A stretch of DNA of 64,000 nt from Halorarum halobium (GTDB lineage Archaea > Halobacteriota > Halobacteria > Halobacteriales > Haloferacaceae). Shown piece by piece: positions 14,742-44,715 of the stretch (positions are counted from its first letter, which is position 1; every line of letters starts with the position of its first letter). The DNA lies in assembly GCF_032116555.1 (NCBI RefSeq), contig NZ_CP134951.1, positions 62,001 to 126,000 of the forward strand, in the 5' to 3' direction. The notes below the pieces were generated by a model. It was not told the origin of the DNA and made no database searches. It saw only the letters and a list, made by a program, of their open reading frames with translations. The position numbers and the translations under genes were made by a program.

Positions 14742-15063
14742 CTTGTGAAATACGTATCGTACATCTCGTGCTTGAATCTGGCGGTTGTTGTAACGTGAAG
14801 CGGGTTCCGGAGTTTCCAGCGTGTGTTCCGACACGCTCCCCGTCGCCGGGCGGCGGAAGGCGAGGACGACGGCCCGGCGAACGCGACCCTCCGGGGCCGC
14901 CCCGTCGCCGAGGAACCGGCTCGATTCGACGGGGCCGAAATTTCCACACGATATGGAATCGCCAAAATCGGTCCAAAATGTTAATTAGCGCCCCGACACA
15001 CAGTCGGGCAATGGGAGACGTGACCACGGGACGAGACGTCGGCCGGCCGGCGGGGGCCGGACG

Positions 15064-16883: not shown

Positions 16884-16885
16884 CC

Positions 16886-18511
16886 ATGCACGAGTACGAC
16901 CTCACCATCACGACGTTCCTCGAACGCGCGACCGAGCTGTACGGCCACAAGGAGATCGTCACGAAGCTCCCCGACGGGGGCCTGCACCGCTACACGTACG
17001 CGGACGCCGCCGATCGCATCGCGCAACTCGCACACGCGCTCGACGAGTTCGGGCTCGACCGCGGCGACCGCGTGGCGGCGATGGCGGCGAACCACTTCCG
17101 CCACTACGAACTGTACTTCGGTCCGGCCTGTAGCGGCCGCAGCGTCCACACGGTGAACCACCGGCTGCCCGACGAGCACCTGGTCCACATCATCAACGAG
17201 GCGGAAGACAGGCTGGCCTTCGTCGACCCCGAGTTCCTGGAGACGGTCGAGGGCGTCGCCGACGACCTGGAGACCGTCGAGCGGTACGTCGTCCTCGCCG
17301 ACGAGGTGCCCGACACCTCTCTCGGCCCGGTCGTCGACTACGAGTCGTTCATCGACGGCTACGCGACCGAGTACGACTGGCCCGACCTCGACGAGGACAC
17401 CGAGTGCGGGCTCTGCTACACCTCGGGGACGACGGGGCTCCCGAAGGGCGTCCAGTACTACCACCGGAAGGTGTACCTCCACACGATGGCCCACGGCCAC
17501 GTCGACGTGTTCGGCGTCGGCGAGCGCGACACGGTGATGCCGGTCGTGCCGATGTTCCACGTCAACGGGTGGGGGTTCCCGTACACGGCGACGTTCTTCG
17601 GCTCCGGGCTCGTCCTGCCGGGCGGCCACACGGACGTCGAGTCGGTCGCCGGCCTGATCGACGACGAGGACGTGACCGTCGCTGCGGCGGTGCCGACCGT
17701 CTGGATCGACATGGAGTCGCACCTCGGCGACGACGAGGCGGGCGTCCTCGACAGCCTCGACCGCGTGCTCACCGGGGGGAGTTCCCCGCCGGAGTCGCTC
17801 ATGCGCCACTACGACGAGGTGTACGAGGCTCCGATCCACCAGGGGTACGGCATGACCGAGGCGTCCCCGCATCTGGTCAACACGTTCGTGACGACCGAGG
17901 CCGAGACGCTCCCCGAGGAGACCCGCTACCGGCTCCGGATGAAGGCGGGCATCCCCGCCCCCGGCGTGCAGATCCGCCTCCGCGACTCCGAGGGCGAGCC
18001 GGTCCCCCACGACGGCGAGACGCGCGGGGAGATCCACGCCCGCGCGCCGTGGCTCATCGACGAGTACTACGAGCGCCCCGAGGCGAACGAGGAGTCGTTC
18101 TCCGAGGACGGGTGGTTCGAGACGGGCGACATCGGCACCATCGACGAGCACGGCTACCTCGACGTGGTCGACCGCCTCGACGACGTCATCAAGTCCGGCG
18201 GGGAGTGGATCCCCTCGATCCAGCTGGAGAACGAACTCATGGGCCACGACGGCGTCGAGGAGGCGGTCGTCATCGGGGCCGACCACGAGAAGTGGCAGGA
18301 GCGCCCGGTGGCGTACGTCGTCCGCGCGGACGGGTCGGCCGACGAGGCCGCCCTCCGCGAGCACCTGCTCGACCGCTACCCGAAGTGGTGGCTCCCGGAC
18401 CTGTTCGTGTTCGTCGAGGACGTGCCGCGAACCACGACCGGGAAGTTCGACAAGAAGCTGCTGCGCGACTCGTTCGACGAGGAGTTCGGCACCCTCCCGA
18501 CCGAGGAGTGA
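16886..18511 (+). CDS. AMP-forming acyl-CoA ligase (medium/long-chain or aryl-alkanoate)
   Basis: YTSGTTGLPKG, GYGMTE, WFETGD, IKSGGEWI, TGKFDK. Confidence 0.93.
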   Translation: MHEYDLTITTFLERATELYGHKEIVTKLPDGGLHRYTYADAADRIAQLAHALDEFGLDRGDRVAAMAANHFRHYELYFGPACSGRSVHTVNHRLPDEHLVHIINEAEDRLAFVDPEFLETVEGVADDLETVERYVVLADEVPDTSLGPVVDYESFIDGYATEYDWPDLDEDTECGLCYTSGTTGLPKGVQYYHRKVYLHTMAHGHVDVFGVGERDTVMPVVPMFHVNGWGFPYTATFFGSGLVLPGGHTDVESVAGLIDDEDVTVAAAVPTVWIDMESHLGDDEAGVLDSLDRVLTGGSSPPESLMRHYDEVYEAPIHQGYGMTEASPHLVNTFVTTEAETLPEETRYRLRMKAGIPAPGVQIRLRDSEGEPVPHDGETRGEIHARAPWLIDEYYERPEANEESFSEDGWFETGDIGTIDEHGYLDVVDRLDDVIKSGGEWIPSIQLENELMGHDGVEEAVVIGADHEKWQERPVAYVVRADGSADEAALREHLLDRYPKWWLPDLFVFVEDVPRTTTGKFDKKLLRDSFDEEFGTLPTEE

Positions 18512-18550: not shown

Positions 18551-20041
18551 TCAGAACGGGTACTCGCGCGGCTCGTGCTGGATCGAGATCCACTTCGTCT
18601 CGGTCACCTCGTGCAGGAACTCGTCGCTGTTGTACCCGCCCATCCCGGAGGCGCCGGTGCCGCTGAAGGGAACGTGCGCCTCGTCGTTGATGGGCTGGTC
18701 GCCGATGTGGACCATGCCCGTCTCCATCCGGTCGGCGATCTCCCTCGCGGTCCCCAGGTCGCCCGCGTGGACCGAGCCCGAGAGCCCGTGCTCGGTGTCG
18801 TTGGCGAGTTCGACCGCCTCGTCCACGTCCGAGAACGGGATGACGGGCGCGACGGGGCCGAAGTGCTCGTTACACGCCGCGGCCATGTCGTTTGTCACCT
18901 CCGAGAGCACGGTCGGGGCGACGACGAGCGAGTCGTCGACGCCGTCGAGTTCGACCGTCTCCCCGCCCGTCTCCAGCGTCGCGCCCGCCTCGACGGTCTC
19001 CTCGACGTACCCCAGCATCTGGTCGCGCTGGGACTCGTCGATGATGGGGCCGACGACCGTCCCGGGGTCGTGGGCGGTGCCGACCGGGAGCGACTCCGCC
19101 CGGTCGACGAGGGCGTCGACGTACTCGTCGTAGGCGTCCTCGTGGACGAGATGGCGGTTGATGGAGATGCACACCTGGCCCTGGTGGACGAACGAGCCGA
19201 AGGTCGCGGCGTCGACCGCCCGGTCGAGGTCGGCGTCGGCGGTGACGACGTGGGCGTTGTTGCCGCCCAGTTCCATCGCCGGGGTGGCGAGGTTCTCGGC
19301 CGCCTTCGAGGCGACGCGCCGCCCGACGGGCGTCGAGCCGGTGAACGCGACGACGTCGCCGTGGCGGTGGCTCGCGACCGCGTCGCCGACGTCGGAGCCG
19401 CGGCCCGTGACGACGTTGAGCACGCCGTCCGGGAGACCCGCCTCCTCGGCGAGCTTCGCGAAGAGGAGTCCGCCCGTGATCGGCGTGTTCGACGCCGGCT
19501 TGACGACGACCGCGTTGCCGGCGGCGATGGCCGGCGCGACCGCCCGCATCGACAGGTTGAGCGGGAAGTTCCAGGGCGAGATGACGGTGACGACGCCCTT
19601 CGGGACGCGCTCGACGATGTTCTCCTTGCCGGGGACGTTCGAGCCCGCGTGCTCGCCCTTCATCCGGCGGGGGAGCGTCGCCGCCTCGGCGGCCTGGTCG
19701 GTGGCGATCTTGATCGACGTCTCGCCCATCGCGCGCGAGCCGCCCGCCTCGTACTCGAGCAGTTCGACGATCCCCTCCTTGTGCGCCTCCAGCCCGTCGA
19801 CGAACGCCTGCGCGGCCTGCTGCCGTCGGGCCGGGGGCGCGTCCGCCCACTCCTCGTGGGCCGCCTGCGCGGCCTCGTAGGCGTCGTCCACGTCCGACTC
19901 GACCGCGGCCGGGACCTGCGCGACCGTCTCGCGCGTCGAGGGGTCCTCGACGTCGATGGTCCCGTCGCCGGCCGATTCGACCCACTCGCCGTCGACGTAT
20001 AGGTCGTTCCAGTCGGCGTCTATCGAGATACTGTCTCCCAT
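18551..20041 (-). CDS. NAD(P)-dependent aldehyde dehydrogenase (benzaldehyde/vanillin dehydrogenase-like)
   Basis: ISPWNFP, FTGST, MELGGN, HQGQVCISINR, EHFGPV. Confidence 0.9.
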   Translation of the reverse strand: MGDSISIDADWNDLYVDGEWVESAGDGTIDVEDPSTRETVAQVPAAVESDVDDAYEAAQAAHEEWADAPPARRQQAAQAFVDGLEAHKEGIVELLEYEAGGSRAMGETSIKIATDQAAEAATLPRRMKGEHAGSNVPGKENIVERVPKGVVTVISPWNFPLNLSMRAVAPAIAAGNAVVVKPASNTPITGGLLFAKLAEEAGLPDGVLNVVTGRGSDVGDAVASHRHGDVVAFTGSTPVGRRVASKAAENLATPAMELGGNNAHVVTADADLDRAVDAATFGSFVHQGQVCISINRHLVHEDAYDEYVDALVDRAESLPVGTAHDPGTVVGPIIDESQRDQMLGYVEETVEAGATLETGGETVELDGVDDSLVVAPTVLSEVTNDMAAACNEHFGPVAPVIPFSDVDEAVELANDTEHGLSGSVHAGDLGTAREIADRMETGMVHIGDQPINDEAHVPFSGTGASGMGGYNSDEFLHEVTETKWISIQHEPREYPF

Positions 20042-20137
20042 GGCGTTCGGCGTTCGGACTCCAGCACAAAAACGGATGGGGCGAGAGCGGGGGAGCCGGC
20101 GTCGACCCGTCGTTCGGGGGGCGTCGAACCGCGCGGT

Positions 20138-21364
20138 TCAGTACCGCCCGATGGTGGCGATCGGCGGGCCGCCGCGCGGGCCGTACGGCGCGTCGTCGAG
20201 CCACTCGCCGGCGTCCTCGTAGTAGTCGGACAGCCCGGCGGCGGCCCGCTTCTTGAACTTCGTCACGACGCCGTCGCCCTGGAGGTACTCCAGCGCCTCG
20301 CCGGCGGCGTTCTTGTTCCACTCGGCGGCCGCCTCGCGCCGGGCGCCGTACAGTTCGACCTCTGCGCGGGCGACCCCGTCGCTCTCCGACCGCGCGGCGA
20401 CCGCGATGGCCGAGGCCGCCTCGTCGGCGTCGGCGATGCCGGAGTTCATCCCGCGCGCGCCGAACGGCGCGAACAGGTGGCCCGCCTCGCCGGCCAGCAG
20501 GACCCGCCGGTGTTCGTCGACGAACGAGTCGGCGGTCACCTGCTTGAACTGGTAGGAGGAGACCCAGTCGACCCGGTCGCGGTAGCGCTCGCCCAGCGTC
20601 TTTGCCACCATGTCGCTCACGACCGCGTCGCTCGCCAGCCGCTCGGGGTCGTCGGTCAGCTTGCACTGGATGTCGACGCGCCAGCCGCCCGTGAACGGCA
20701 CGAGCAGGACGTTCCGCCCGCCGACCTCGGGGTGGTCGTAGTGGAACACGCGTTCGTGTGCGCGCGGCTCGTCCGGGTGCTCGTCGACGTCGGCGATGAT
20801 GAACGAGTTCTCCGACTGGCTCCCCTCGAAGTTCGAGCCGATCTCCTTGCGGACCGTCGAGCCGGCCCCGTCGGCCCCGACGACGTACGGCGTCTCCCAC
20901 TCGCGGCCGTCCTCGGTCTCGACGCGGACGCCGTCGGGCTCCGACTCGACCGTCTCGACCGCCGAGTCCCAGTGGATCTCGACGTCGAGTTCCGCCAGCG
21001 CGTCCAGCAGGAACTCCTCGGTCTCGACCTGCGGCAGGCTGGTGAAGTGCGGGAGGTCGCCGGTGCCGCCCGGGCTGTCGTACGTGCGCGAGAACACCTC
21101 CTTCCCGCGGAACAGCGTCCGCCGGGTGGGCCACACCAGCCCCGCGTCGGCGAGCCGCTTGCCCAGCCCCTCGCGGTTGCGTTCGAGCGTGTGGAGCGTC
21201 GTGCCGTGGACGTAGATTGCCCGGCTCCCCGGCCGGTTGCGGCCCTCGGGCTCGGCTTCCAGGACGACGACCGGGACGCCCCGGGCCCGGAGCGCGAGCG
21301 CGGCGGTCATCCCCGTCGGCCCAGCGCCGGCTACGACGACCGGGTCGTGCTGACTCTCGGACAT
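20138..21364 (-). CDS. FAD-dependent aromatic monooxygenase (group A flavoprotein hydroxylase)
   Basis: VAGAGPTG, VVGADGAGSTVRK, LLAGEAGHLFAPFGARGMNSGIADA; start at MSESQH. Confidence 0.88.
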   Translation of the reverse strand: MSESQHDPVVVAGAGPTGMTAALALRARGVPVVVLEAEPEGRNRPGSRAIYVHGTTLHTLERNREGLGKRLADAGLVWPTRRTLFRGKEVFSRTYDSPGGTGDLPHFTSLPQVETEEFLLDALAELDVEIHWDSAVETVESEPDGVRVETEDGREWETPYVVGADGAGSTVRKEIGSNFEGSQSENSFIIADVDEHPDEPRAHERVFHYDHPEVGGRNVLLVPFTGGWRVDIQCKLTDDPERLASDAVVSDMVAKTLGERYRDRVDWVSSYQFKQVTADSFVDEHRRVLLAGEAGHLFAPFGARGMNSGIADADEAASAIAVAARSESDGVARAEVELYGARREAAAEWNKNAAGEALEYLQGDGVVTKFKKRAAAGLSDYYEDAGEWLDDAPYGPRGGPPIATIGRY

Positions 21365-21493
21365 ACTCGATACTCGGATAGGGGACCCAAAGCGGTTTTG
21401 GTTAGCGCACCCACGATCATCGGGAGCCGACACCCGCGGCCGGTACCGACCCGAAGAGCATGTTTTATGGTCGCACTCGCCGCCAGTTCCAGT

Positions 21494-22372
21494 ATGCGAT
21501 TCGTGACCTACGACGAGGGCCGCCTCGGCCTGCTCACCGACGACGGCGAGGGCGTCATCGACCTCTCCGACCGGCTCGGCATCGACTCGCGCGACCCGCT
21601 CGTCGCGTACATGCGGGGCGACTACGACGCGTCCCGGTACGCCGACGCAGAGCCCGACCACGACCGCGCGGCGGTCGACCTCGGCTCGCCGGTCCGCCGG
21701 CCGGGGAAGGTCATCGCCGCGCCGCTCAACTACGAGAACCACATCGAGGAGGCGCTCGCGGACCGGGACATCACCACCGAGGAGTGGTTCTCCATCGAGG
21801 ACAAGGGCTACTTCCTGAAAGCGCCCTCCAGCGTCGTCGGTCCGGACCACGGCGTCGAACTCCCGTTCTCGGACCGCCGGACGGACCACGAGATCGAACT
21901 CGCGTTCGTGATGGGCGAGGAGGCCAAGGACGTGTCCGCCGAGGAGGCGTGGGACCACGTCTTCGGCTACACCATCCTGCTCGACATCTCCGTGCGCGGC
22001 GACCAGGACCGCTCGAACCGGAAGTCCTACGACACGTTCACCGTCGTCGGCCCGTGCGTCGTGACGGCCGACGAGATCGACGACCCGCAGGACCTGGAGA
22101 TGGAACTGCAGCTCAACGGCGAGACGCGCCAGCGGGAGAACACGGGCGACATGGTGTACACCTGCGCGGACGTGGTGCAGTACGCCTCCATCGGCGCGAC
22201 GATCGAGGTCGGCGACGTGATCACCACCGGCACGCCGGAGGGCGTGAGCGAACTCCACGACGGCGACACGATCGACGCCGAGATCGAGGACGTGGGGTCG
22301 ATGACGGTCGACGTGACCGGGCGGGACGTGCGGTTCGCGGACGTGGACGTGGCGAAGGGCGGACAGGAGTAG
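21494..22372 (+). CDS. Fumarylacetoacetate-hydrolase family protein (fumaryl/maleylpyruvate hydrolase candidate)
   Basis: PGKVIAAPLNY, FLKAPSS, DHEIELA, KSYDTF, GDVITTGTPEGV; divergent from the monooxygenase. Confidence 0.88.
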   Translation: MRFVTYDEGRLGLLTDDGEGVIDLSDRLGIDSRDPLVAYMRGDYDASRYADAEPDHDRAAVDLGSPVRRPGKVIAAPLNYENHIEEALADRDITTEEWFSIEDKGYFLKAPSSVVGPDHGVELPFSDRRTDHEIELAFVMGEEAKDVSAEEAWDHVFGYTILLDISVRGDQDRSNRKSYDTFTVVGPCVVTADEIDDPQDLEMELQLNGETRQRENTGDMVYTCADVVQYASIGATIEVGDVITTGTPEGVSELHDGDTIDAEIEDVGSMTVDVTGRDVRFADVDVAKGGQE

Positions 22373-22422
22373 TTCAGGACGCCGTTTTCCTCGGGTTTCG
22401 TTTTCCGTCCGTCGCGTCGATT

Positions 22423-22510
22423 GCCTCGAACGCCCCTCGCGACTGTCGGCCTGCGCGGGACGCTCCGCGCTCCTCGGCCTTCGGCCTGCGGTGCTCCCCC
22501 TCGCGCGCGG
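22423..22510. repeat. Intergenic GC-rich REP/MITE-like element, copy 1
   Basis: Shares TCGAACGCCCC-CGCGRCTGTCGGC...CGCTSCGCGCT...CCCTCGCGCGCG with 28506-28640; internal GGCC-TTC-GGCC hairpin. Confidence 0.6.
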
Positions 22511-22681
22511 GCCGTCGAGGTGACGGCCGACGGCCTCCGCGACGTCGAGGGCGACCTGTGGACCGTGGACCGGGAGGAACTCCGGAATTCGGTCGGCGAG
22601 ACGCGCGAGCGCGTCGTCGGCCGCCACGGGCTCTGGTTCGCGTTCCGGACCCACTACGGGGAGACACACGTCCTCCGGTAG
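22511..22681 (+). pseudogene. Probable 3' gene remnant with no convincing start, ending ...RHGLWFAFRTHYGETHVLR
   Basis: Coding-like acidic, GC3-rich frame beginning right after the repeat element. Confidence 0.4.
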
Positions 22682-22743
22682 CGGGGACCGCATCGCGCGG
22701 GGGGAGGCTTTATGTCCGCGCGCGGACGACGGCGTGACAGACG

Positions 22744-23448
22744 ATGGCAATCCTCGAATTGGACGAGATCGACGTCGGATACGGGGCCGTGCAGGTCATC
22801 TGGGACGTGAGCCTCGACGTGGCGGAGGGGGAGACGGTCGCGCTGCTTGGCGCGAACGGCGCGGGGAAGACGACCGTGCTGAAGACGATCTGTGGCCCGC
22901 TCACGCCGATGGACGGCGACGTCCGCTTCAGGGGCGAGTCGATCGGCGGCCTCCAGCAGGACGAGGTGGTGCCCGAGGGCATCGCGCACGTCCCCGAGGG
23001 CCGCGAGATCTTCCACGATAGCTCCGTCGAGGAGAACCTCACGCTCGGCGCGTACGCGAACCGCGACGGGATGGCCGAGCGCCGCCGCGAGGTGTACGAC
23101 ATCTTCCCGCGGCTGGAGGAGCGCACCGGCCAGCGCGCGGGCACGCTCTCAGGGGGCGAACAGCAGATGCTCGCCATCGGCCGGGGGCTGATGTCCGACC
23201 CCGACCTCCTGCTGCTCGACGAGGCGAGCCTCGGGCTCGCGCCGGTGCTCGTCGACGACGTGTTCGACGCGATCGAGCGCATCAACGACGAGGGGACGAC
23301 CGTGCTCATCGTCGAACAGGACGTCCACAACGCGCTGCGGGTCGCCGACCGCGGCTACGTCCTCGAATCGGGTCGCGTGTCGCTGTCGGGGTCGGCCGAG
23401 GAACTCGCCGAGGACGAGCGCGTCGCCGCGTCGTATCTCGGCGGCTGA
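22744..23448 (+). CDS. livF: Branched-chain-type ABC ATPase (LivF-like)
   Basis: GANGAGKTT, HVPEGREIF, LSGGEQQMLAIGR. Confidence 0.9.
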   Translation: MAILELDEIDVGYGAVQVIWDVSLDVAEGETVALLGANGAGKTTVLKTICGPLTPMDGDVRFRGESIGGLQQDEVVPEGIAHVPEGREIFHDSSVEENLTLGAYANRDGMAERRREVYDIFPRLEERTGQRAGTLSGGEQQMLAIGRGLMSDPDLLLLDEASLGLAPVLVDDVFDAIERINDEGTTVLIVEQDVHNALRVADRGYVLESGRVSLSGSAEELAEDERVAASYLGG

Positions 23449-23572
23449 GCGGCCGAGCGCGCGCGGCGGCCGACGTGGAGCGACGGCGACCGCCGACGGC
23501 CCGCGAACGGCACACGAAGAACCGAGGACGGAACGAACGGACCGAAAAACTCGAACTTCTCGCCGGAGCGGG

Positions 23573-24619
23573 CTAGGCCCCTTCGGACCGCGACTCCTCG
23601 ACGTCCGACGGGGGCGTCTCCGTCTCCTCGTCGTCCGAGAGGTAGCGCCGTTCGACGAGCCCGTACAGCCCGCTCGGGACGAAGACGATGAACAGGATGA
23701 TGAGCAGTCCCTCGATCGTCGTCGCCAGCCCGCCCGCGACGGCGCGGAGTCCGGTGTCGAGCGCGAGGAACAGCCCCGCCCCGATGACGGGCCCGAGCAT
23801 CGTCCCCATCCCGCCGAGGATGACGACGACGAGCGTGTCGATCATCCAGACGACGTCCAGCGTCGACTCGGGGTTGACGTACAGCGTGAACTGCGCGTAG
23901 ATCGCGCCCGTCAGCCCGGCCATGAGCGAGGAGATCACGAACGCGTACATCTTGTACCGCAGCGGGTTGACGCCGAGGCTGCTCGCGGCACCCTCGTCGC
24001 CGTGGATGGCCCGCATCGCGAGCCCCCAGCGGCTCTCGATCACGAGGTACGCCGCGACCAGCATCCCGACGGTGACGACCAGCGCGAGGAGGTACATCGC
24101 GTCGGCCCCGATGCTGCCGTTGATGTAGTAGCCGGTCGAGCCGCCCGAGAACCGCCGCTGGTCGAGCAGCACCAGCTGGATGATCGCCGCCAGCGCCAGC
24201 GTCCCGATGGCGAAGTAGTGGCCCGTCAGCCGGAACATGATCGGGCCGGTGGCGAGCGCGAGCAGGCCGGCGGCGAGCGCGCCCCCGAGCAGCGAGACGA
24301 TCGCGACCGCCGCGGGTGAGCCGAGCGGGATGAGCTCGGGCAGCCCGGCGCGCGAGGGCGTCGTCAGCCACGCCGAGACGAACGCGCCGGTCCCGAAGAA
24401 GGCGGCGTGGCCCAGCGAGACCTGCCCGGCGTACCCCGCCAGCACGTTCCAGGAGATGCCGAGCATCGCGAACACCAGCCCGGTGAACACGATCTCGGTG
24501 ATGTAGGCGGTGGTGGTGAACGGCACGATCGCCAGGAGCGCCACCCCCACGGCGGCCAGCGCGAGCCGTCGCCGGTCGCCGGCGATCCCCTCGGCCGCGG
24601 CGCCGAACCGGTCCATCAT
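23573..24619 (-). CDS. livM: Branched-chain-type ABC permease (LivM-like)
   Basis: WNVLAGYAGQVSLGHAAFFG, YFAIGTLA, VILGGMGT. Confidence 0.9.
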   Translation of the reverse strand: MMDRFGAAAEGIAGDRRRLALAAVGVALLAIVPFTTTAYITEIVFTGLVFAMLGISWNVLAGYAGQVSLGHAAFFGTGAFVSAWLTTPSRAGLPELIPLGSPAAVAIVSLLGGALAAGLLALATGPIMFRLTGHYFAIGTLALAAIIQLVLLDQRRFSGGSTGYYINGSIGADAMYLLALVVTVGMLVAAYLVIESRWGLAMRAIHGDEGAASSLGVNPLRYKMYAFVISSLMAGLTGAIYAQFTLYVNPESTLDVVWMIDTLVVVILGGMGTMLGPVIGAGLFLALDTGLRAVAGGLATTIEGLLIILFIVFVPSGLYGLVERRYLSDDEETETPPSDVEESRSEGA

Positions 24620-25500
24620 TCGCCGTCACCCCCGCCGGTGCCGAACAGCCCCTGGGGCCGCACGACGAGCACGAGGAGGAAGATGGTGAAGCTGATGATG
24701 TCCCGGAAGCCGCCGCCGAGATACAGCGTCCCGAGGTTCTCGGAGACGCCGAGAACGAGCCCCCCGACGAGCGTCCCGGCGATGCTCCCGACGCCGCCGA
24801 GCACGACCACGGCGAACGCCTTCAGCAGGTACGACCACCCGACGAACGGGGTGATGGGGAACAGCATCGAGAGGAGCGCCCCGGCGGCCCCGGCGAGCGC
24901 CGTCCCGATGCCCAGCGTGATGACGTAGATGCGGTCGGTGTCGATGCCCATGTACCGCGCGGCGTCGCGGTTCTGTGCGGTCGCCCTGATGGCCCGCCCG
25001 GTCGTCGTGTACCGCAGGAACGCCCAGGTGGCGAGGATGAGCGCGACCGAGACGACGAACGTCACCGTCCGCGGGAACGAGAACAGCACCGGGCCGATCT
25101 CGAGGCTCTGTCCCGAGATGCCGACCTCGGCCGAGCGCGCGTCGCTCCCGAGCACGATGCGCCCGAGGCTCTGGAGCACGAGCGCGAGACCGAACAGCAC
25201 GATGATCGGCTGTTCGATCCCCTCGTCGACGACGCGGTCGAGCACGAGCACCTGGATGGCCATTCCGAGGACGAAAAGCAGCGCCATCGCGACGAACATC
25301 CCGATCAGCGGCGTGATCCCGGCGGCCGCGAACAGCAGGATGGCGACGTACGCGCCCAGCATGAGCATGTGCCCGTGCGCGAGGTTGACGATGTCCATGA
25401 TCCCGAACACGAGCGAGAGGCCCAGCGCGGCCACGGCGTAGATCCCCCCGAGGAGGAGCCCGTTGACCAGGATCTGTAAGACGAGTTCAGTCGGCGGCAT
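24616..25500 (-). CDS. livH: Branched-chain-type ABC permease (LivH-like)
   Basis: NGLLLGGIYA, NLAHG, VVLGGVGSI, RPQGLFG. Confidence 0.9.
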   Translation of the reverse strand: MPPTELVLQILVNGLLLGGIYAVAALGLSLVFGIMDIVNLAHGHMLMLGAYVAILLFAAAGITPLIGMFVAMALLFVLGMAIQVLVLDRVVDEGIEQPIIVLFGLALVLQSLGRIVLGSDARSAEVGISGQSLEIGPVLFSFPRTVTFVVSVALILATWAFLRYTTTGRAIRATAQNRDAARYMGIDTDRIYVITLGIGTALAGAAGALLSMLFPITPFVGWSYLLKAFAVVVLGGVGSIAGTLVGGLVLGVSENLGTLYLGGGFRDIISFTIFLLVLVVRPQGLFGTGGGDGE

Positions 25501-25551
25501 ACGTGTGAGTCGGTGGTTGGTGGGGCATATAAAACCGGGGTGGGGAGCGGG

Positions 25552-26802
25552 TTATCGCTCGCCCCAGGGCGTCATCGGGTACTCGAAGTCCATCGCGGCG
25601 TCGCCGTCGACGTCGGGGTAGACGGTGTGCTGGCCGCCGTCCCACCACTGGCCGGTCGGCGCGGTGAGTTCGCCCTCCGTCGGCAGCCCGTTGCTCTCGA
25701 AGGTGAAGTCGCCGATGACGGTCCCGAACTCCGTCTCCCGGAGCGCCGACTGGTACGCGCCGGGGTCGGTGGACTCGGCGGCCTGCGTGGCCTGCAGCGC
25801 GACCTGCGCGACGTTGTAGGCCCCGCCGACGGCGGTGGGGATGAGCTGCCCCTGATCGAGGCCGTACTCCGACTCGTAGGCGCTCTGCAGGTCCGTGTTG
25901 CCGTTCCCGGTCATGCCCGGGACCCAGCCCGGACACATGCAGGCGTACGCGCCCTTCTGGCCGAGCGCGGACCACCACGCCGTCGGGTCGGCCGCGCGGA
26001 CGTACTTCAGCACCTCCGGCGTGTAGTCGTTCGCCTGCATCTGGTTGATCGACGTGATCCCGCCCGGCGGCGTCGGGTTCGACAGGAGGATCTCGACCTC
26101 CTGGCTCTGCGACTGGGAGATGAGCGTCGAGAAGTCCTCCGAGCCGAGTGAGAACGTCTCGCGCAACACGACGTCGTAGCCCGCGTCCGAGAGCGTCGAC
26201 TCCCAGGCGTCGGCCTGTTCCGCGCCCCAGCCGGAGTTGGGCTCCCAGATGCCGACGCGGCTCGGCCGCTCGTCCTCGGGGATGAGTTCGAGTAGCCCCT
26301 GCGTGGAGCGGGCCACGTCGCGCGATTTGGGGAACGGCGAGTAGGTCCACTCGTACCCCTCGTTCCGGTGGGGGCCCTCGAAGGCGAAGAACGCGCCCAG
26401 GAACGGGATGCCCTGGTTCTCCGCGAACGCGCTCCCGGCCGTGACCAGCAGGCTGGAGAAGCTCCCCCAGATCATGTCGACGTCGTTGTTGCTGGTGATC
26501 TGCTGGAGGCTCTGGCGCACCTGATCGGCACTGCTCTCGTCGTCCTGGATGACGATCTCGACCTCCTGGTCCAGCTGGTCGTTCATCCGGGCGACCCCGA
26601 GTTCGTAGCCGCGCCGGACGTCCTGGCCCAGCGAGGAGAACGAGCCGGTCTCCGGGACCGTCGCCCCGATGGTGAGCGTGCCCGACCCGCCGGAGCCGCC
26701 GAAGGCCGTACAGCCGGCGAGCCCCGTCATGCCGGCCGCACCCGCGGCACCGACCGTTTTCAGGTACTGTCGTCTGGAGTTACCCGTAGCACTGTCTACC
26801 AT
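25552..26802 (-). CDS. ABC substrate-binding lipoprotein, LivK/PBP1 family, paralog 2
   Basis: SRRQYLK...LAGC; close paralog of 10813-12036. Confidence 0.88.
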   Translation of the reverse strand: MVDSATGNSRRQYLKTVGAAGAAGMTGLAGCTAFGGSGGSGTLTIGATVPETGSFSSLGQDVRRGYELGVARMNDQLDQEVEIVIQDDESSADQVRQSLQQITSNNDVDMIWGSFSSLLVTAGSAFAENQGIPFLGAFFAFEGPHRNEGYEWTYSPFPKSRDVARSTQGLLELIPEDERPSRVGIWEPNSGWGAEQADAWESTLSDAGYDVVLRETFSLGSEDFSTLISQSQSQEVEILLSNPTPPGGITSINQMQANDYTPEVLKYVRAADPTAWWSALGQKGAYACMCPGWVPGMTGNGNTDLQSAYESEYGLDQGQLIPTAVGGAYNVAQVALQATQAAESTDPGAYQSALRETEFGTVIGDFTFESNGLPTEGELTAPTGQWWDGGQHTVYPDVDGDAAMDFEYPMTPWGER

Positions 26803-27004
26803 GCTATGCGTCCTCATTACGCTCTCGTATGTAAAACCATGTGGTTCTTCTCCCCGTTTTCGCCCCGGAACGATGGTCCAGACCCCGCTCCACGACGGTG
26901 GTCGCACCGAGAAAGCAGCCGGAACGCCGGGACCGCGACGATCGGACGGTGCGATCGGAACGCTCCGATCCGGCCGCCGCGACCGGGCCGTTGCGACCCG
27001 GCCG

Positions 27005-28087
27005 CTACGAAGAGGGCTCGGCCTCGGCGTAGAAGTTGAACGCCTCGAGCACCGGCCGGTCGGTCATCCCCAGCAGGATCGCCTCCCCGTCCGGCTCGTG
27101 GTGGTGGATCTCGTCGGGCGGCACCACGAAGATGTCCCACTGGCCCCACTCGAGCGCCTCGTCGCCGACGTGGGTGGCGCCCTCGCCCTCGATGACGAAG
27201 TACACCTCCGTCGCGTTGTGGAAGTGCGGGTCGGTCGCCTCCTGGAGCAGCTGCGCGCGGAACGACATCGTCGGGAACAGCGGCTCCTTCCCGGTGGCCG
27301 GGTTGACGTACGCCAGGCTGTAGCCGTCGTGCGGGTCGGGCTCGTCGTTGTCGGCGCGCTGGCGCAGCGACTCGAGCATCTCGTCCCAGCCGAAGCGGTA
27401 CGGCGGCGTCGCCTCCCTGTTCCCCTCGAACGGGCCGGGGATGGTGCCGTCCCCCTTCTCGTCGGCCGGCCGGCCGCGGCCGTACTGGGAGTCCCAGTAG
27501 CCCTGCGTCTTCGTCACCGGCTGGCGTTCGAGCTCGTGGTTCTCGAACACCTGCTTCTTGTTCAGCGAGTCGAGGAACAGCGGCAGGTCGAGCACGTCGA
27601 GCCAGGCGGCCGTCTCGTCGGAGTCGTTGACGTGGTCGTGCCACTCCCACTGCGGGGTGGTGATGAGGTCGTTGTTCTCCATCGGGAACTCCTCGCCCGC
27701 CACGACCGTCTTCATCTCCTCGTTCCCGTCGATGGTGAACCGAAGGGCGTTGGCCGAGTGTCGGTGCGAGGGCGCGGTCTCGCCGGGCGAGACGGTCTGG
27801 ACGCCGACGTAGATGCTGTTCGAGATGGCGTTCTCGGTCCCGGTGTTGATGGGCACGGCGACGCGCCGCTGGAACCCCGGCGGCAGGTCGGCGATGGGAA
27901 CGTCCGACTCGACGCCGTCGATGGCGGCCTGGATGTCCTCCCAGTGCCAGATGTCCGTCTCCAGGTCGTCCATGACGTTGCCGAAGTCGTCCTCCACCTC
28001 CCAGAGCGGACGGAGGCCGTGTTCCTCGAGGATGCTCCGGGTCTCCGCACTGACCTCTAGGAGTTCCTCAGGGTCTTGCTGGGCCAT
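27005..28087 (-). CDS. gdoA: Gentisate 1,2-dioxygenase (bicupin)
   Basis: PGETAPSHRHSANALRF, TPQWEWHDH, WLDVLDLP and second cupin HFHNATEVYFVIEGEG; context of FAH, thioesterase and CoA ligase. Confidence 0.85.
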   Translation of the reverse strand: MAQQDPEELLEVSAETRSILEEHGLRPLWEVEDDFGNVMDDLETDIWHWEDIQAAIDGVESDVPIADLPPGFQRRVAVPINTGTENAISNSIYVGVQTVSPGETAPSHRHSANALRFTIDGNEEMKTVVAGEEFPMENNDLITTPQWEWHDHVNDSDETAAWLDVLDLPLFLDSLNKKQVFENHELERQPVTKTQGYWDSQYGRGRPADEKGDGTIPGPFEGNREATPPYRFGWDEMLESLRQRADNDEPDPHDGYSLAYVNPATGKEPLFPTMSFRAQLLQEATDPHFHNATEVYFVIEGEGATHVGDEALEWGQWDIFVVPPDEIHHHEPDGEAILLGMTDRPVLEAFNFYAEAEPSS

Positions 28088-28247
28088 GGACAATAGTTAG
28101 CACAGATTCGGCATAAGTGTATTGGACGGGCGAGCGGGCCGTCGCCCGGATTCGCGGCCCGTGAGGGCCGTCCTCGTCGGTATCCGTTCGATGCGTCGGG
28201 GGGTCGGCGCGGTTCGAATGCGGCGTTCGCGTCGCCCGGCTCGCGCG

Positions 28248-28424
28248 CTACGCCCGCACCTGGTCGTCGAACACGTCGCTCGATCGGAACACCGACCGGC
28301 AGTCCTCACAGACCATCTGCCCCTGGATGGCGTACTCCCAGAGCTTCCCCCCACACTGCAGGCAGTCGAAGTGCGCCTGGACGAACGGGTCGGCGTCCGA
28401 GTAGATGTTCTCGAAGTCGGCCAT
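28248..28424 (-). CDS. 58-aa zinc-ribbon microprotein (CxxC-x14-CxxC)
   Basis: Manual translation MADFENIYSDADPFVQAHFDCLQCGGKLWEYAIQGQMVCEDCRSVFRSSDVFDDQVRA; shorter than any ORF in the track. Confidence 0.8.
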   Translation of the reverse strand: MADFENIYSDADPFVQAHFDCLQCGGKLWEYAIQGQMVCEDCRSVFRSSDVFDDQVRA

Positions 28425-28505
28425 GGTGTCGTGTTGGGTGAGGAGGTCAAAAAGGATGCCGTCCGCGCCAGTCCGGTGTCGTCCGGGCCTGTTGTCGCCT
28501 CGGCC

Positions 28506-28640
28506 GCATCGAACGCCCCCGCGGCTGTCGGCTCGGTGCGGCCGCTGCGCGCTTCGCGCTCCCTGCGGTCGTTCCGGTACTCGTCCCTCGCGCGCGTCGT
28601 CTCTCCCCTGCGGGGCTCGCCGTCACGCGCGACAGCCGGC
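28506..28640. repeat. Intergenic REP/MITE-like element, copy 2, with CGGCTGTCG...CGACAGCCG inverted repeat
   Basis: Similar to 22423-22510; 9-bp inverted repeat at 28522-28530 and 28630-28638. Confidence 0.6.
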
Positions 28641-28671
28641 TGCTCTCCGGTCTCGTAAACCGGGAAACCGG

Positions 28672-29145
28672 TCAGTCGTCGGCGTACGGCTCCATCGCCG
28701 AGCGGAGGTCGTCGGGCAACTCCATCGAGCCGTCGCCGCCGTGGTGGGCACAGACCCGCTGCTCGTGGCCCGAGAACGCCACCTCGCCGTCGTTCCGCGC
28801 GACGTACTCGAACCGCACGCTCCGGGTGCCCAGTTCCGGGGTCAACTCAATGCTCACCTCGTCGCCCGCCTCCACCGGCGCTTCGAACTCGAAGTCCATC
28901 TCCACGAGCGGCAGCCCGAACCCGTGCTCCTGTGAGATCTCCCAGAACGGGAAGCCGACCGCCTGCATGAACATGTCCGAGGTCTCGTGGAGCGCGTCCA
29001 CGATGCGCGGGTAGTGCGCGATGCCGAACGGGTCCGTGTCCGAGAACCGGACCGTCCAGACGCGCTCGAAGCCCCCGTCCGCTCCGTCCGGTCCGTTCGC
29101 CCCGTCCACTTCGTCCGGCCCGTCCCGCTCGCCACCGTCACTCAT
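28672..29145 (-). CDS. Hotdog-fold acyl-CoA thioesterase (4-hydroxybenzoyl-CoA thioesterase family)
   Basis: VRFSDTDPFGIAHYPR, LPLVEMDFEFEAP. Confidence 0.88.
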   Translation of the reverse strand: MSDGGERDGPDEVDGANGPDGADGGFERVWTVRFSDTDPFGIAHYPRIVDALHETSDMFMQAVGFPFWEISQEHGFGLPLVEMDFEFEAPVEAGDEVSIELTPELGTRSVRFEYVARNDGEVAFSGHEQRVCAHHGGDGSMELPDDLRSAMEPYADD

Positions 29146-29887
29146 CGCCCGCACCTCCGTCCAGCACGACGAGCGCGTCGAGCGCGACCGCCCCGTCGTC
29201 GGTCGACAGCACCGGGTTCACGTCCACCTGCGCGACCGCCTCGCGCTCGACGAGCAGGTCGCCGACCGCACACACCACGTCCGCGAGCGCGTCCACGTCG
29301 GCGGCGGGCCGGCCGCGGTAGCCCGAAAGCAGCCTGGCGGCGGTCAGTTCCTCGACGGCCTCGCGCGCCTCGGCGCGGTCGAGCGGCGCGAGCCGGTGGC
29401 TCGTGTCCTCGTACACCTCGGTGAAGACCCCGCCGAGCCCCGTCAGCACCACCGGCCCGAACGACGGGTCGCGCAGGCCGCCGACGATGACCTCCGTGCC
29501 GGCGTCCACGTCGCGCGCCTCCTCGACGAGCACCGCGGCGTCGATGCCCTCGTCCTCGGCCGCGTCGAAGACGCGCTCGGCGGCCGCCGCGACCGCCTCA
29601 CTGGAGTCGAGTCCCAGCGCGACGCCCGCGCCGTCGGCCCACTCGCTCTTGTGGGTGACCGCCGGCGATGACACCTTCAGGACGACCGGGAAGCCAAGAT
29701 CGGCCGCCGCATCGGCCGCGGATTCGGGGTCGGCGGCGACGGCGAACTCGGTCGTCTCGACGCCCGCCTCCGCGAGCAGCGACTTGGCTTCCGCCTCGGT
29801 GAGCGTCGTCCGTCCGTCCGCCCGCGCCGCCGCGACGGGGTCGGCGGACGGGTCGCCGGCGGGCGCGCCCGAACCGGCATCAGACAT
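29138..29887 (-). CDS. acdB: ADP-forming acyl-CoA synthetase beta (ATP-grasp) subunit
   Basis: LTEAEAKSLL, GFPVVLKV, HKSE, DPSFGPVV, DVNPV. Confidence 0.85.
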   Translation of the reverse strand: MSDAGSGAPAGDPSADPVAAARADGRTTLTEAEAKSLLAEAGVETTEFAVAADPESAADAAADLGFPVVLKVSSPAVTHKSEWADGAGVALGLDSSEAVAAAAERVFDAAEDEGIDAAVLVEEARDVDAGTEVIVGGLRDPSFGPVVLTGLGGVFTEVYEDTSHRLAPLDRAEAREAVEELTAARLLSGYRGRPAADVDALADVVCAVGDLLVEREAVAQVDVNPVLSTDDGAVALDALVVLDGGAGDE

Positions 29888-31256
29888 CGGCGCTCACCTC
29901 CTCGGACACACCAGTTTTCCCGAGTTCCGCGAAGCGGGCCAGCAGCGCGGTCGCCTCGGCGGCGCGCTCGGGCGAGGTGAACGTCGGCACGCCCGCCTCC
30001 CGGAGCGCCGCGAGTTCGTCGTCCATCGCCCCGGGCGGCCCCTCGGTGGCGAACAGCACCGGCTTCCCGACGCGCTCGGCGAGCCCGTCGAGCGTCTCGA
30101 CCGGGTAGCCGAGCGCCTCCTCGAACAGCTCGTAGACGAGGACGACGTCCACGGCGTCGTCCTCGGCGACCGCCTCGACCACCTCGCCGAACTCGGGCAT
30201 CGGCCGGCCCGTGTCGACGGGGTTGCCGGCGAAGGTGATGCCCGGGAGGATCTCCTCGACCCGCTCTCGCGTCTCGGGGCCGAGATCGGGGAGGCTCGCG
30301 CCGCCCCGCTGGAGCCGGTCGGCGACGATGATGCCCGGGCCGGCCTGGGCGGTCACGACGCCCACGTTCGCGCCGGCGGGCGCCGGCGAGTCGGCGAGCG
30401 CGACGCCGGCGTCGAGCAGCGCCGCCGTGGAGTCGACCGTCGGCACGCCGTACTGGGCGAAGCCGGCGGTGTAGAGGTCGTGATCGCCCGTCAGCGCGCC
30501 CGTGTGCGACTCGGCGAACTCGCCGACGTCGGACTGGCCGACCTTGTACGCCGCGACGGGCGTTTCGGCCGCGCGGCACGTTTCGAGCAGCGAGCGGCCG
30601 TCGTCGGTGCCCTCGACGTGGAGGATCACGGCGTCGGTGGCGTCGTCGCCGTCGAAGTACTCGATCGCCGCCTCGAAGCCGACGTTCGCCCGGTTGCCCA
30701 GCCCGACCATCGCCGAGACGCCGCGCCCCTCGCGGAGCGCCTGAAACGCGAGCTGGTGGGCGACGCCGCCGCTCTGGGCGACGATGGCGACGTTGCCGGC
30801 CGGGAGCCGCTCGACGCCGCCGGCGAAGGAGGCGAGCAGGTCGTCCCGCGGGACGACGAAGCCGCTCGTGTTCGGCCCGAGCAGCGCGAGGTCGCCCTCG
30901 GCAGCGATCGAGACGATCTCGTCCTGGAGCTCCTCGCCCTCGTCGCCGGCCTCCGCGAAGCCGCCGGCGTAGATGACGGCCCCGCCGACGTCGGCCGCGA
31001 CGCACTCGGCGAGCACGTCGGGGACGACCGGGCCGGGGACACACAGCAGCGCGAGGTCGACCGGCTCGTCGACGTCGGTCACGGACGCCACGAACGGCTC
31101 GCCGAACACCGACCCCTCGCCGGAGGGGTTGACGGGGTAGACGCGCCCGTCGAACGCGACCGCGTTCGCCATCGCCTCGTAGCCGATCTTCCCCTCGGTG
31201 CTCGAGGCCCCGACGACCGCGACGGTTTCCGGGCTGAACAGGCGTGTCAGGTTCAC
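29880..31256 (-). CDS. acdA: ADP-forming acyl-CoA synthetase alpha (CoA-binding) subunit
   Basis: LFSPETVAVVGAS, LLGPNTSG, AQSGG, phospho-His motif SHTGAL, NPVD; GTG start. Confidence 0.85.
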   Translation of the reverse strand: MNLTRLFSPETVAVVGASSTEGKIGYEAMANAVAFDGRVYPVNPSGEGSVFGEPFVASVTDVDEPVDLALLCVPGPVVPDVLAECVAADVGGAVIYAGGFAEAGDEGEELQDEIVSIAAEGDLALLGPNTSGFVVPRDDLLASFAGGVERLPAGNVAIVAQSGGVAHQLAFQALREGRGVSAMVGLGNRANVGFEAAIEYFDGDDATDAVILHVEGTDDGRSLLETCRAAETPVAAYKVGQSDVGEFAESHTGALTGDHDLYTAGFAQYGVPTVDSTAALLDAGVALADSPAPAGANVGVVTAQAGPGIIVADRLQRGGASLPDLGPETRERVEEILPGITFAGNPVDTGRPMPEFGEVVEAVAEDDAVDVVLVYELFEEALGYPVETLDGLAERVGKPVLFATEGPPGAMDDELAALREAGVPTFTSPERAAEATALLARFAELGKTGVSEEVSADV

Positions 31257-31427: not shown

Positions 31428-32177
31428 ATGGCGTTACTGGAGGGCGAACATCTGACGAAGCGCTTCGGCGGGGTCGTCGCCGTCGACGACGTCTCGTTCT
31501 CGATCGACCGGGGCGAGGCGGTCGGGCTCATCGGACCGAACGGCGCGGGCAAGTCCACGCTGTTCCGACTCATCACCGGCGTCCACTCGCCGACCGAGGG
31601 CACCGTCACGCTCGACGGCGAGGTCATCACCGGCCGGAAACCGTACCAGATCTGTCACCGCGGGCTGGTGAAGACCCACCAGATCGTCAAGCCGCTGGAG
31701 GGGCTCACGCTGCTGGAGAACGCGACCGTCGGCGCGGAGTTCGGCGGCCGTGACCCCGAACATCCCGAGGAGCGGGCCTACGAGGCCCTGGAGTTCGTCG
31801 GGCTCGACCACATCGCGCACGACGAGCCGGACGAGCTGAGCGTCGGCGCGCTCAAGCGACTGGAGATCGCCCGCGTGCTGGCGACCGACCCCGAGGTGCT
31901 GCTGCTCGACGAGGTCGCTGGCGGGCTCGACACCGAGGAGACCGAGGAGATCGTCGACCTCATCCGCGAGATCCGGGACCGCGGGACGACGGTGTTCCTC
32001 ATCGACCACGTGATGCGCGCGCTCATGTCGGTCAGCGAGCGCGTGTTCGTCCTCGACAAGGGCGAACTCATCGCGGAGGGCACCCCCGAGGAGATCCAGA
32101 ACGACGAGCACGTCATCGAGGCGTACCTCGGCGAGAGCGCCGCGCGCGACCACGCCGGCACGGCCGCGGGCGACTGA
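31428..32177 (+). CDS. livG: Branched-chain-type ABC ATPase (LivG-like)
   Basis: KRFGGVVAVDDVS, GPNGAGKST, LLLDEVAGGL, VIEAYLG. Confidence 0.9.
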   Translation: MALLEGEHLTKRFGGVVAVDDVSFSIDRGEAVGLIGPNGAGKSTLFRLITGVHSPTEGTVTLDGEVITGRKPYQICHRGLVKTHQIVKPLEGLTLLENATVGAEFGGRDPEHPEERAYEALEFVGLDHIAHDEPDELSVGALKRLEIARVLATDPEVLLLDEVAGGLDTEETEEIVDLIREIRDRGTTVFLIDHVMRALMSVSERVFVLDKGELIAEGTPEEIQNDEHVIEAYLGESAARDHAGTAAGD

Positions 32178-32256: not shown

Positions 32257-32883
32257 CTACTCCGGCTTTCCGATGAAGTTCACGAACCGCTCCAGCGTCC
32301 CGCTCGCCCCGTCGGTCACCGACGAGCCGTGGTACACGAGGCCGACGTCGAACTCGTAGCCCAGCAGCCGCTCGAGGCTCTCGTCGGCCCGCGCGAGGTC
32401 GGCCGAGAAGAACGCGGTCGGCAACACGAAGCCTCCCTCGGGCAGCCCCCGCGCGTCCGAGCCGAACACGGCGTCGCCCAGCACCGCGACGCCGGCGTCC
32501 TCGTCCACGAGCGAATGGTGGTGGTCGGCGTGGCCGGGCGTGTGGACGGCCGTAAACCGCCCGACTGCGTCGCCGTCCCCGTACCGACGGGTCGGCTCGT
32601 GGTCGTCCAGTTCCAGCCCCTCCGGGGCCCACGTCTCCAGGTCGTAGCGCTCGGCCAGCCCCGCGACCCCGCCGACGTGGTCGGGATCGCCGTGGGTCAG
32701 GACGAGCCGTTCGGGCTCGACCCCGAGTTCGTCGAGCCGGTCGGCGACGACGTCCACGGTGTCGGCGAACGCCGCGTCGACGAGCGTCGGGACCTCGCCG
32801 TCGAACAGGAACACGCGGTAGCGCCCGCCGTTCAGTTCGGCCACGGTCAGATCGTAGACGTCCGGCGCGATCTCGTCGGTCAT
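32257..32883 (-). CDS. Metallo-beta-lactamase-fold hydrolase
   Basis: TLVD, LTHGDPDHVGG, HTPGH, LGDA, YHG. Confidence 0.85.
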   Translation of the reverse strand: MTDEIAPDVYDLTVAELNGGRYRVFLFDGEVPTLVDAAFADTVDVVADRLDELGVEPERLVLTHGDPDHVGGVAGLAERYDLETWAPEGLELDDHEPTRRYGDGDAVGRFTAVHTPGHADHHHSLVDEDAGVAVLGDAVFGSDARGLPEGGFVLPTAFFSADLARADESLERLLGYEFDVGLVYHGSSVTDGASGTLERFVNFIGKPE

Positions 32884-33045
32884 GCGGTCGGGATTCGCCC
32901 CGCCACCGACTAAGCGTTTTCCGCGGTCGGCGACGGGCGAGTTCGGTCGGGCCGGGAAAGCCGCCGATCTCCGGTCGGCGGTCGGGCTCCCCTTCCGGAA
33001 CACCCATAGGACCCCGTGTCGTGGGATGGGACAGATTCGTCACAC

Positions 33046-39450: not shown

Positions 39451-39587
39451 CGTAACATGTTGTTGATTTCACGGGCTTAACTGTTTTTCTTCTCGTAAGA
39501 ACCGGTCCCGCCGGTCCCGCCGCCCGTGACCGTCAGGCCCGCCGACCGCGCTTCGACAGGAGCGAACGCCCCCGGTTCGTCGGCCGA

Positions 39588-40190: not shown

Positions 40191-40388
40191 GAACTCCCCT
40201 TCGCACCCTCCCATTACAAAGGAACCGATGTCGGCGGTCGCGCGGCGGGGACGCGAGGCGTCCAAACCGGTTCGGACGGTTCGCTCGGTTCGTCCGACTC
40301 CTCCATTACAGAGGTATCGGTGTAAGTTCGAGCGGGGGGCGGCGACCGCCGGTTCCCCTCTCGGAAACGGCCGCTCCGCCGCCCGGCG

Positions 40389-44700: not shown

Positions 44701-44715
44701 CCACCTCTCCCCTTC

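Follow-up and report, generated by a model that had tools for sequence, protein, structure and literature searches.

Gene content of the locus

The window analyzed here is a 64,000-nucleotide (nt) stretch of the Halorarum halobium genome (contig NZ_CP134951.1, positions 62,001 to 126,000), and it carries a cluster of predicted aromatic-degradation genes in which a flavin monooxygenase and the gentisate 1,2-dioxygenase GdoA accompany genes for coenzyme A (CoA) esters. The contig is 196 kb long, has a GC content of 70.6% and is one of 3 contigs of a complete genome; because the monooxygenase has its nearest named relatives (88% and 86% identity) on Halobaculum plasmids, the contig is taken as a haloarchaeal secondary replicon. 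The genes central to the analysis are listed below, with the basis of each assignment in parentheses.

12795-18511: beta-oxidation module, consisting of a hydroxyacyl-CoA dehydrogenase/hydratase (-) and of a thiolase, an OB-fold partner and the AMP-forming ligase AMP1 (+) (NCBIfam)
18551-20041 (-): aldehyde dehydrogenase, putatively converting 4-hydroxybenzaldehyde to 4-hydroxybenzoate (PDB sequence matches)
20138-21364 (-): PhgA-family group A flavin monooxygenase, 408 amino acids (PF01494)
21494-22372 (+): FAH-family hydrolase, putative maleylpyruvate hydrolase (PF01557)
27005-28087 (-): gentisate 1,2-dioxygenase gdoA, a bicupin of 360 amino acids (PDB matches, His motif)
28248-28424 (-): four-cysteine zinc-ribbon protein, 58 amino acids (linkage to gdoA)
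28672-29145 (-): hotdog thioesterase resembling PhgB and gentisyl-CoA thioesterase (PF13279)
29138-29887 (-): beta subunit of an NDP-forming acyl-CoA synthetase, here ACD (ATP-grasp_5)
29880-31256 (-): ACD alpha subunit (TIGR02717, 337.7 bits, under the cut-off)
34558-36135 (-): AMP-forming CoA ligase, here AMP2 (best PDB match, feruloyl-CoA synthetase)

A first-pass annotation of this DNA had placed the monooxygenase, the aldehyde dehydrogenase and the FAH hydrolase in one cluster with the CoA genes, and the open reading frames (ORFs) of all genes that it named proved uninterrupted and intact. Its description of ACD alpha, ACD beta and thioesterase as translationally coupled was borne out by an 8-nt overlap at each of the two junctions; alpha and beta were adjacent in 52 retrieved loci, with an overlap of always 4 or 8 nt. 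The gdoA gene lies on the same strand, as had been stated, and the coupling does not extend to it, the overlooked 58-residue zinc-ribbon gene standing between thioesterase and gdoA. The run alpha-beta-thioesterase-zinc ribbon-gdoA was contiguous in 31 retrieved loci. The span first given for the cluster, 18551 to 31256, was too narrow, since the conserved cluster extends from about 12795 to 37053 and holds two AMP-forming CoA ligases. It should be noted that the ORF caller missed the FAH gene of the window and the monooxygenase of one genome (G221) and shortened some thioesterase starts; locus-based counts are therefore lower bounds.

The monooxygenase is a member of the PhgA family

As outlined in two papers (PMC7862547, PMC11848710), PhgC makes a CoA ester, PhgA hydroxylates it with a 1,2-shift and PhgB hydrolyzes the resulting gentisyl-CoA. 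Protein P0171 and genes on locus L159 served as stand-ins for the Brevibacillus PhgA, PhgB and PhgC proteins; they were equated by eye, not by computation, with the published phgA, phgB and phgC DNA (supplement of PMC11848710), and the PhgA stand-in showed about 8 differences in 410 residues by the same visual comparison. The monooxygenase of the window shares 184 of 405 aligned residues with P0171 and 182 of 392 (46%) with the L159 stand-in, and a search of this genome with the latter returned 20138-21364 as its sole match. In an IQ-TREE phylogeny of 38 rows, taken from 141, the PhgA family formed a clade of 30 with support of 100/100; one of its subclades is haloarchaeal (100/100), and another, which contains the stand-in, consists of Bacillota proteins (100/99). 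A FastTree phylogeny of all 141 rows agreed. The first-pass proposal of a PhgA-type enzyme is thus upheld by sequence and tree, and also by the co-occurrence described below. An alternative reading of the monooxygenase frame as an 870-residue protein (20138-22750) was rejected because relatives have about 410 residues and because the added stretch would run into the FAH gene.

The enzyme is far from the hydroxylases of free acids and from SdgC. It scored above the cut-off of no NCBIfam family, reaching at most 114.7 bits with MhpA models (cut-off, 390) and 75.2 bits with PobA (cut-off, 351), and the 3-hydroxybenzoate 6-hydroxylase (3HB6H) model was absent among the best 25 of 38 NCBIfam matches. 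To one 3HB6H-like protein it aligned over a patch of just 52 residues with 21% identity, and to a salicylyl-CoA 5-hydroxylase-like protein over 19 residues, that is, essentially not at all. These scores bear on the possibility that the monooxygenase uses a free acid in the manner of 3HB6H, PobA or MhpA and that the CoA genes are chance neighbors. Two of the 58 genomes with the monooxygenase indeed lack gdoA, ACD, thioesterase and AMP2 matches, and many relatives bear the JGI label "3-(3-hydroxy-phenyl)propionate hydroxylase"; however, the same label is also attached to Bacillota members of the PhgA clade, and we give the free-acid explanation the least credence of all those considered.

The predicted structure (predicted local distance difference test score, 92) has the group A flavoprotein fold, and FAD motifs of the single-component type are present. 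Its best fold match was the p-nitrophenol 4-monooxygenase PnpA (template modeling score, 0.77; 26% identity), which does not use a CoA ester; PnpA attacks the substituted carbon para to the phenol, and the substituent leaves without migrating. The 22 sequence matches in the PDB were all weak (best E value, 7e-23). Sixteen basic positions, including a Lys/Arg pair at 371-372, are common to the haloarchaeal and Bacillota enzymes, and Lys makes up only 2% of the halophilic sequences; these positions may form a CoA-phosphate site.

Two observations concern the surroundings of PhgA-family genes elsewhere. On a Streptomyces goshikiensis plasmid (L032, 568-21203), a family member (49% identity) belongs to a biosynthetic cluster that also encodes DAHP synthase, PabB, AMP ligases, desaturases and a P450, where the shift chemistry may serve on an aminobenzoyl ester in natural-product synthesis. 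A 107-residue archaeal protein (L061:13673-13996(-) and relatives) was found at 48 of 58 monooxygenase loci, adjacent to the gene in 39, and has no Pfam match and no match in this genome; it is a candidate accessory factor.

Distribution of the cluster among Halobacteria

In a survey of 401 Halobacteria genomes, the monooxygenase was detected in 58, representing 25 of 91 genera with a patchy distribution within genera, and gdoA in 60. Both genes were present in 56 genomes, the monooxygenase alone in 2 and gdoA alone in 4, an association that exceeds chance. The two lie within 10 kb of each other in 29 of the 56 genomes, within 20 kb in 46 and within 35 kb in 51. ACD alpha was found in 57 and AMP2 in 49 of the 401 genomes. 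Thioesterase and ACD beta were searched for in 80 genomes, comprising 61 carriers and 19 controls of one family, and neither occurred in any of the 19 controls.

Among the 56 genomes with both monooxygenase and gdoA, ACD alpha was present in 55, alpha plus beta in 51, thioesterase in 52, AMP2 in 48 and all of them in 40, so the synteny anticipated for gdoA, ACD and thioesterase across Halobacteria is conserved. Either ACD alpha plus beta or AMP2 occurred in all 56, and either thioesterase or ACD alpha plus beta in 55. Other genes recur less often: the aldehyde dehydrogenase in 34 of the 56 clusters, the metallo-beta-lactamase-fold hydrolase in 31, the ATP-binding cassette (ABC) binding protein in 23 and each gene of the beta-oxidation module in 17 to 19. 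Bacillota PhgA loci likewise contain thioesterases, AMP ligases and dioxygenases; genes of beta-oxidation are frequent there too, a dehydrogenase/hydratase-like gene being present in 16 of 25.

A predicted route from 4-hydroxybenzoate to gentisate

Gene content, orthology and co-occurrence are observed; from them we infer the substrates and the shift itself, and the cluster probably encodes a haloarchaeal route of the PhgABC type, in which 4-hydroxybenzoyl-CoA is converted to gentisyl-CoA by an NIH shift. The shift is assigned to 20138-21364 because this monooxygenase is orthologous to PhgA. 4-Hydroxybenzoate would be imported, formed from its aldehyde or supplied as a CoA ester by beta-oxidation of a side chain, and the acid would be activated to 4-hydroxybenzoyl-CoA. 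The monooxygenase would then oxygenate the ring at C1, the position para to the phenol, after which the acyl-CoA group would move to C2 and the ring would re-aromatize to gentisyl-CoA. In this chemistry C1 is the target of a hydroperoxyflavin, and the thioester shifts to the neighboring carbon rather than being lost as CO2. Gentisyl-CoA would next lose CoA, the gentisate would be opened by GdoA to maleylpyruvate, and the FAH protein would hydrolyze maleylpyruvate directly to maleate and pyruvate. As for the supply of substrate, the best PDB matches of the aldehyde dehydrogenase were 4-hydroxybenzaldehyde dehydrogenase (E value, 1.6e-121) and benzaldehyde dehydrogenase, and the beta-oxidation module could shorten aryl side chains to aroyl-CoA.

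Several points weigh against this reading. The co-occurrence counts overstate significance because related genomes are not independent. The IQ-TREE phylogeny does not place the haloarchaeal clade as sister to the Bacillota PhgA proteins, and the branching order within the family is unsettled. Substrates may vary within the family, since one member sits in the Streptomyces aminobenzoate-biosynthesis cluster. GdoA scored 206.6 bits with the gentisate dioxygenase model TIGR02272 (cut-off, 442) and 202 bits with a 5-aminosalicylate dioxygenase model, also under its cut-off. No gene for maleate use was identified in the window, and the initial claim of a complete pathway was overstated, as direct hydrolysis would yield maleate. 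Finally, for acdB and tieA, genes of a haloarchaeal gdoA-acdB-tieA trio, the 2006 work of Fairley reportedly found no induction by 4-hydroxybenzoate in Haloarcula sp. D1 and found induction by benzoate, cinnamate and phenylpropionate in Haloferax D1227.

That induction pattern would suit the main rival, namely, that the monooxygenase mainly 6-hydroxylates 3-hydroxybenzoyl-CoA without a shift and so ends a route from benzoate, cinnamate or phenylpropionate to gentisyl-CoA. The beta-oxidation module flanks the monooxygenase in the window, and degradation of these three compounds via gentisate by Haloferax D1227 is described in two reviews (PMC4005966, PMC9113102). Moreover, a divergent PaaA/PaaC-like oxygenase module, a candidate benzoyl-CoA oxygenase for a benzoate-to-gentisate route, adjoins the cluster in G002, G046, G104 and G223. 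However, the one characterized PhgA-family member acts on the 4-isomer (PMC7862547, PMC11848710), and this genome has no close copy of the Paa-like module, the chromosomal matches reaching only 30 to 39% identity. We consider the 3-hydroxybenzoyl-CoA explanation unlikely as the principal function; both reactions are para-hydroxylations, one enzyme might perform both, and the two explanations are not mutually exclusive. The PaaA/PaaC-like module (for example, at L057:470-3002) was also noted in G385, where ACD genes are embedded in it and no PhgA is present.

A further explanation keeps the same shift and changes the substrate: 4-aminobenzoate would be degraded via its CoA ester to 5-aminosalicylate. 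The Streptomyces relative among aminobenzoate biosynthesis genes and AMP ligases would fit this, as would the similar GdoA scores (202 bits against 207). On the other side, the aldehyde dehydrogenase suggests a hydroxybenzaldehyde, and the haloarchaeal physiology on record is that of hydroxybenzoate and benzoate degradation via gentisate. We regard the aminobenzoate route as very improbable.

ADP-forming synthetase or AMP-forming ligase

With 4-hydroxybenzoyl-CoA as the probable intermediate, the question arises of which enzyme forms the ester. The subunits assigned to ACD are a CoA-binding alpha protein with a His motif (His251) and an ATP-grasp beta protein with a second His motif (His79, present in 53 of 53 relatives); these would be, respectively, the phospho-His and the second His of such a synthetase. 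The alpha subunit is distinct from the chromosomal housekeeping ACD (39% identity). The first-pass annotation had suggested that ACD replaces the AMP-forming ligase, and this suggestion fits in that the genome has no PhgC orthologue, the best match of the PaaK-like PhgC stand-in being 26% over 281 residues outside the cluster, and ACD was absent from all 26 Bacillota PhgA loci. Consistent with replacement, in one genome without ACD (G269) a PhgC-like ligase (36%) is encoded at a distance of two genes from the monooxygenase, and 8 of the 56 genomes lack AMP2 and keep ACD plus thioesterase. AMP1 was seen in the retrieved loci of 4 of these 8, and two AMP2-less genomes of one genus (G137, G220) have no AMP ligase within the 20 kb retrieved.

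Other evidence runs counter to replacement. AMP2, with 25% local identity to the PhgC stand-in, shows almost as close a linkage as ACD (48 of 56), and the reported lack of acdB and tieA induction by 4-hydroxybenzoate in Haloarcula D1 points the same way. The three nearest bacterial ACDs inspected (37 to 44% identity), which are closer to the ACD of the window than to the housekeeping ACD, all lie in gentisate-type operons with an AMP ligase and without a hotdog thioesterase. ACD alpha plus beta was lost in 5 and AMP2 in 8 of the 56 genomes with no overlap, a complementarity that is often expected by chance and is not proof. The claim of replacement thus keeps the absent PhgC orthologue in its favor, whereas AMP2 and the bacterial operons speak against it.

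Actinobacterial gentisate operons such as those at L160 and L161, which we take to be of the salicylyl-CoA Sdg type, share with the window an ACD homologue, an AMP ligase, an aroyl-CoA flavin hydroxylase, gentisate dioxygenase and an FAH protein; they differ in a hydroxylase that cannot be aligned with that of the window, a fused ACD, a mycothiol isomerase and the lack of a hotdog thioesterase. The three inspected operons lend weight to an arrangement with the hydroxylase chemistry proposed above and the ACD reversed: AMP2 or AMP1 would activate the acid, and ACD would make gentisate, CoA and ATP from gentisyl-CoA, ADP and phosphate, with the thioesterase acting in parallel. The L160 monooxygenase is salicylyl-CoA 5-hydroxylase-like, three genomes of one genus (G022, G070, G118) have ACD and AMP2 and no thioesterase match, and archaeal ACDs usually run in the ATP-forming direction. 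The AMP2-less genomes and G269 argue against this arrangement, as do ADP-forming ligases (NF045492/3 descriptions), some of which work in the forward direction. We hold the reversed arrangement to be a serious, if minority, possibility. As regards ACD itself, a role as forward ligase has a slight edge, short of an even chance; an ATP-yielding release of gentisate is almost as likely, and a role in both steps or in another aryl-CoA branch is somewhat less so.

In G214, G227, G277, G336 and G382, a member of a second, stand-alone ACD alpha clade (13 rows) stands two genes away from the monooxygenase; this clade has no member in this genome. Small proteins resembling gamma-carbonic anhydrases (PaaY-like, by eye) at L161:11770-12381 and at 18 haloarchaeal loci constitute a further possible CoA-releasing enzyme.

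Release of gentisate and ring cleavage

The thioesterase was the sole match of the PhgB stand-in in the genome (34 of 124 residues, 27%), and its best PDB match was 5WH9, which we take to be the gentisyl-CoA thioesterase BH1999. For this class of hotdog thioesterases, to which BH1999 of Bacillus halodurans belongs, two active-site Asp residues are given in PMC516016. The first is retained in the window protein as Asp38, aligned with the catalytic Asp of BH1999, and the second is replaced by His53, as in 41 of 44 haloarchaeal relatives.

All 6 PDB matches of GdoA are gentisate 1,2-dioxygenases, and its His108/110/150 motif is kept in 60 of 60 relatives. The FAH protein best matched the maleylpyruvate hydrolase 6JVV (residues 1-276; E value, 1.8e-48), and because of this match and because no maleylpyruvate isomerase was seen in the window, direct hydrolysis of maleylpyruvate appears likely.

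At all 59 loci with calls for both genes, the zinc-ribbon gene adjoins gdoA in the same orientation, its position being upstream at some loci and downstream at the rest. Including G022, where it also stands beside gdoA, it accompanies 60 of 61 gdoA matches; the sole exception is a 46%-identical dioxygenase in G385, and the gene was found in none of the 78 gdoA-less genomes searched. The four Cys residues are invariant in 30 of 30 aligned sequences. All 64 relatives found are close, and those with an organism name are haloarchaeal. The protein has no significant Pfam match, and its predicted fold is a generic zinc ribbon with a best Z score of 3.6, which is not significant. Our guess is that it may supply iron to GdoA or reactivate it; alternatively, it may be a local regulator.

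Two observations concern the lower pathway in other genomes. At L062 and L102 a stand-alone module of FAH, oxidoreductase, zinc ribbon, gdoA and transporter genes occurs without monooxygenase or CoA genes; it was seen in G028 and, as a second copy, in G149. An FAD/Fe-S oxidoreductase of about 1,020 residues (L132 and relatives), present in 38 of 56 clusters and here only on the chromosome, might oxidize a 2-hydroxy acid downstream of maleate.

Relation to known systems

For Haloarcula D1, a shift of the 4-hydroxybenzoate carboxyl group was reportedly recorded in 2002 and the bacterial enzyme in 2018, and no hydroxylase gene is said to have been named in the 2002 and 2006 Fairley papers. A haloarchaeal "hag" cluster may also have been described recently. 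PhgABC from Brevibacillus laterosporus PHB-7a (Zhao et al. 2018, as cited in PMC11848710 and PMC7862547) shares with the window an orthologous flavin hydroxylase (45 to 46% identity), a hotdog thioesterase of the same class (27%) and a CoA-dependent layout leading to gentisate. Unlike that system, the cluster described here has ACD and no PhgC orthologue (best, 26% local identity), a putative direct maleylpyruvate hydrolase instead of a DinB-type isomerase, and a zinc-ribbon partner of gdoA. Haloarcula sp. D1 and Haloferax sp. D1227 reportedly carry the same gene trio as the window, gdoA-acdB-tieA (Fairley 2002, 2006), and an NIH shift of 4-hydroxybenzoate is reported for the former.

The chemistry itself is already known, and the cluster is thus a variant of it. 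In the open literature, subscription journals not being covered, we found no paper on an archaeal PhgA or a haloarchaeal "hag" cluster; the accessible portions of PMC10581246, PMC10815724 and PMC8305020 hold nothing on this cluster, and haloarchaeal reviews, as far as their available text goes, name only the gentisate dioxygenase (PMC9113102, PMC4005966, PMC6140281). There is nevertheless a real, if minority, chance that the haloarchaeal finding has been published before.

The analysis links the Haloarcula D1 shift with the bacterial enzyme through one concrete candidate gene, which 56 of 401 haloarchaeal genomes carry alongside gdoA, and yields a prediction as to which haloarchaea are able to break down hydroxybenzoates in brines. 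Two questions become sharper as well: whether aroyl-CoA is formed or cleaved by the ADP-forming synthetase, and what function the zinc-ribbon protein linked to gdoA has. As a joint claim we would put forward only tentatively that a single bacteria-related PhgA clade, found in about one-seventh of haloarchaeal species, is the enzyme of the archaeal NIH shift, that in its mosaic pathway a dedicated, reversible ADP-forming synthetase either spends one ATP bond rather than two on charging the aromatic acid or regains ATP from gentisyl-CoA, and that gentisate dioxygenase requires a small metal-binding partner not known from bacteria.

Other features of the window

The remaining genes of the conserved cluster are as follows.

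22744-26802: branched-chain-type ABC transporter, with an ATPase (+) and two permeases and a binding protein (-)
31428-32177 (+): second ABC ATPase
32257-34488: metallo-beta-lactamase-fold hydrolase (-) and DASS/SLC13 anion transporter (+)
36286-37053 (-): IclR-family regulator, likely the cluster regulator

The ABC binding protein gave no PDB match at 1e-8, and the IclR family was present in the retrieved loci of 26 genomes. Within the cluster, 22493-22678(+) retains only the 60 C-terminal residues of a DUF3179-type protein, 74% identical to an intact 496-residue ORF of G381, and is a deletion remnant as judged from this comparison. The cluster is flanked by a site-specific integrase-like gene and an SMC-related pair (9114-10304 and 37498-40214; labels from a related record). 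Farther along, an amidohydrolase with a peptide-type ABC transporter is encoded at 41586-48742, and translations read by eye suggest nitrite reductase-like, assimilatory nitrate reductase-like and nitrate transporter-like genes at 53882-59276. Between these lie an extradiol dioxygenase resembling catechol 2,3-dioxygenase (50119-51084(-); TIGR03211, 251 bits; cut-off, 320) and, beside it, an amidohydrolase-like gene (by eye) and a short-chain dehydrogenase (51236-53091(-)), so that 50119-53091 is a possible second, meta-cleavage aromatic module in this haloarchaeon.

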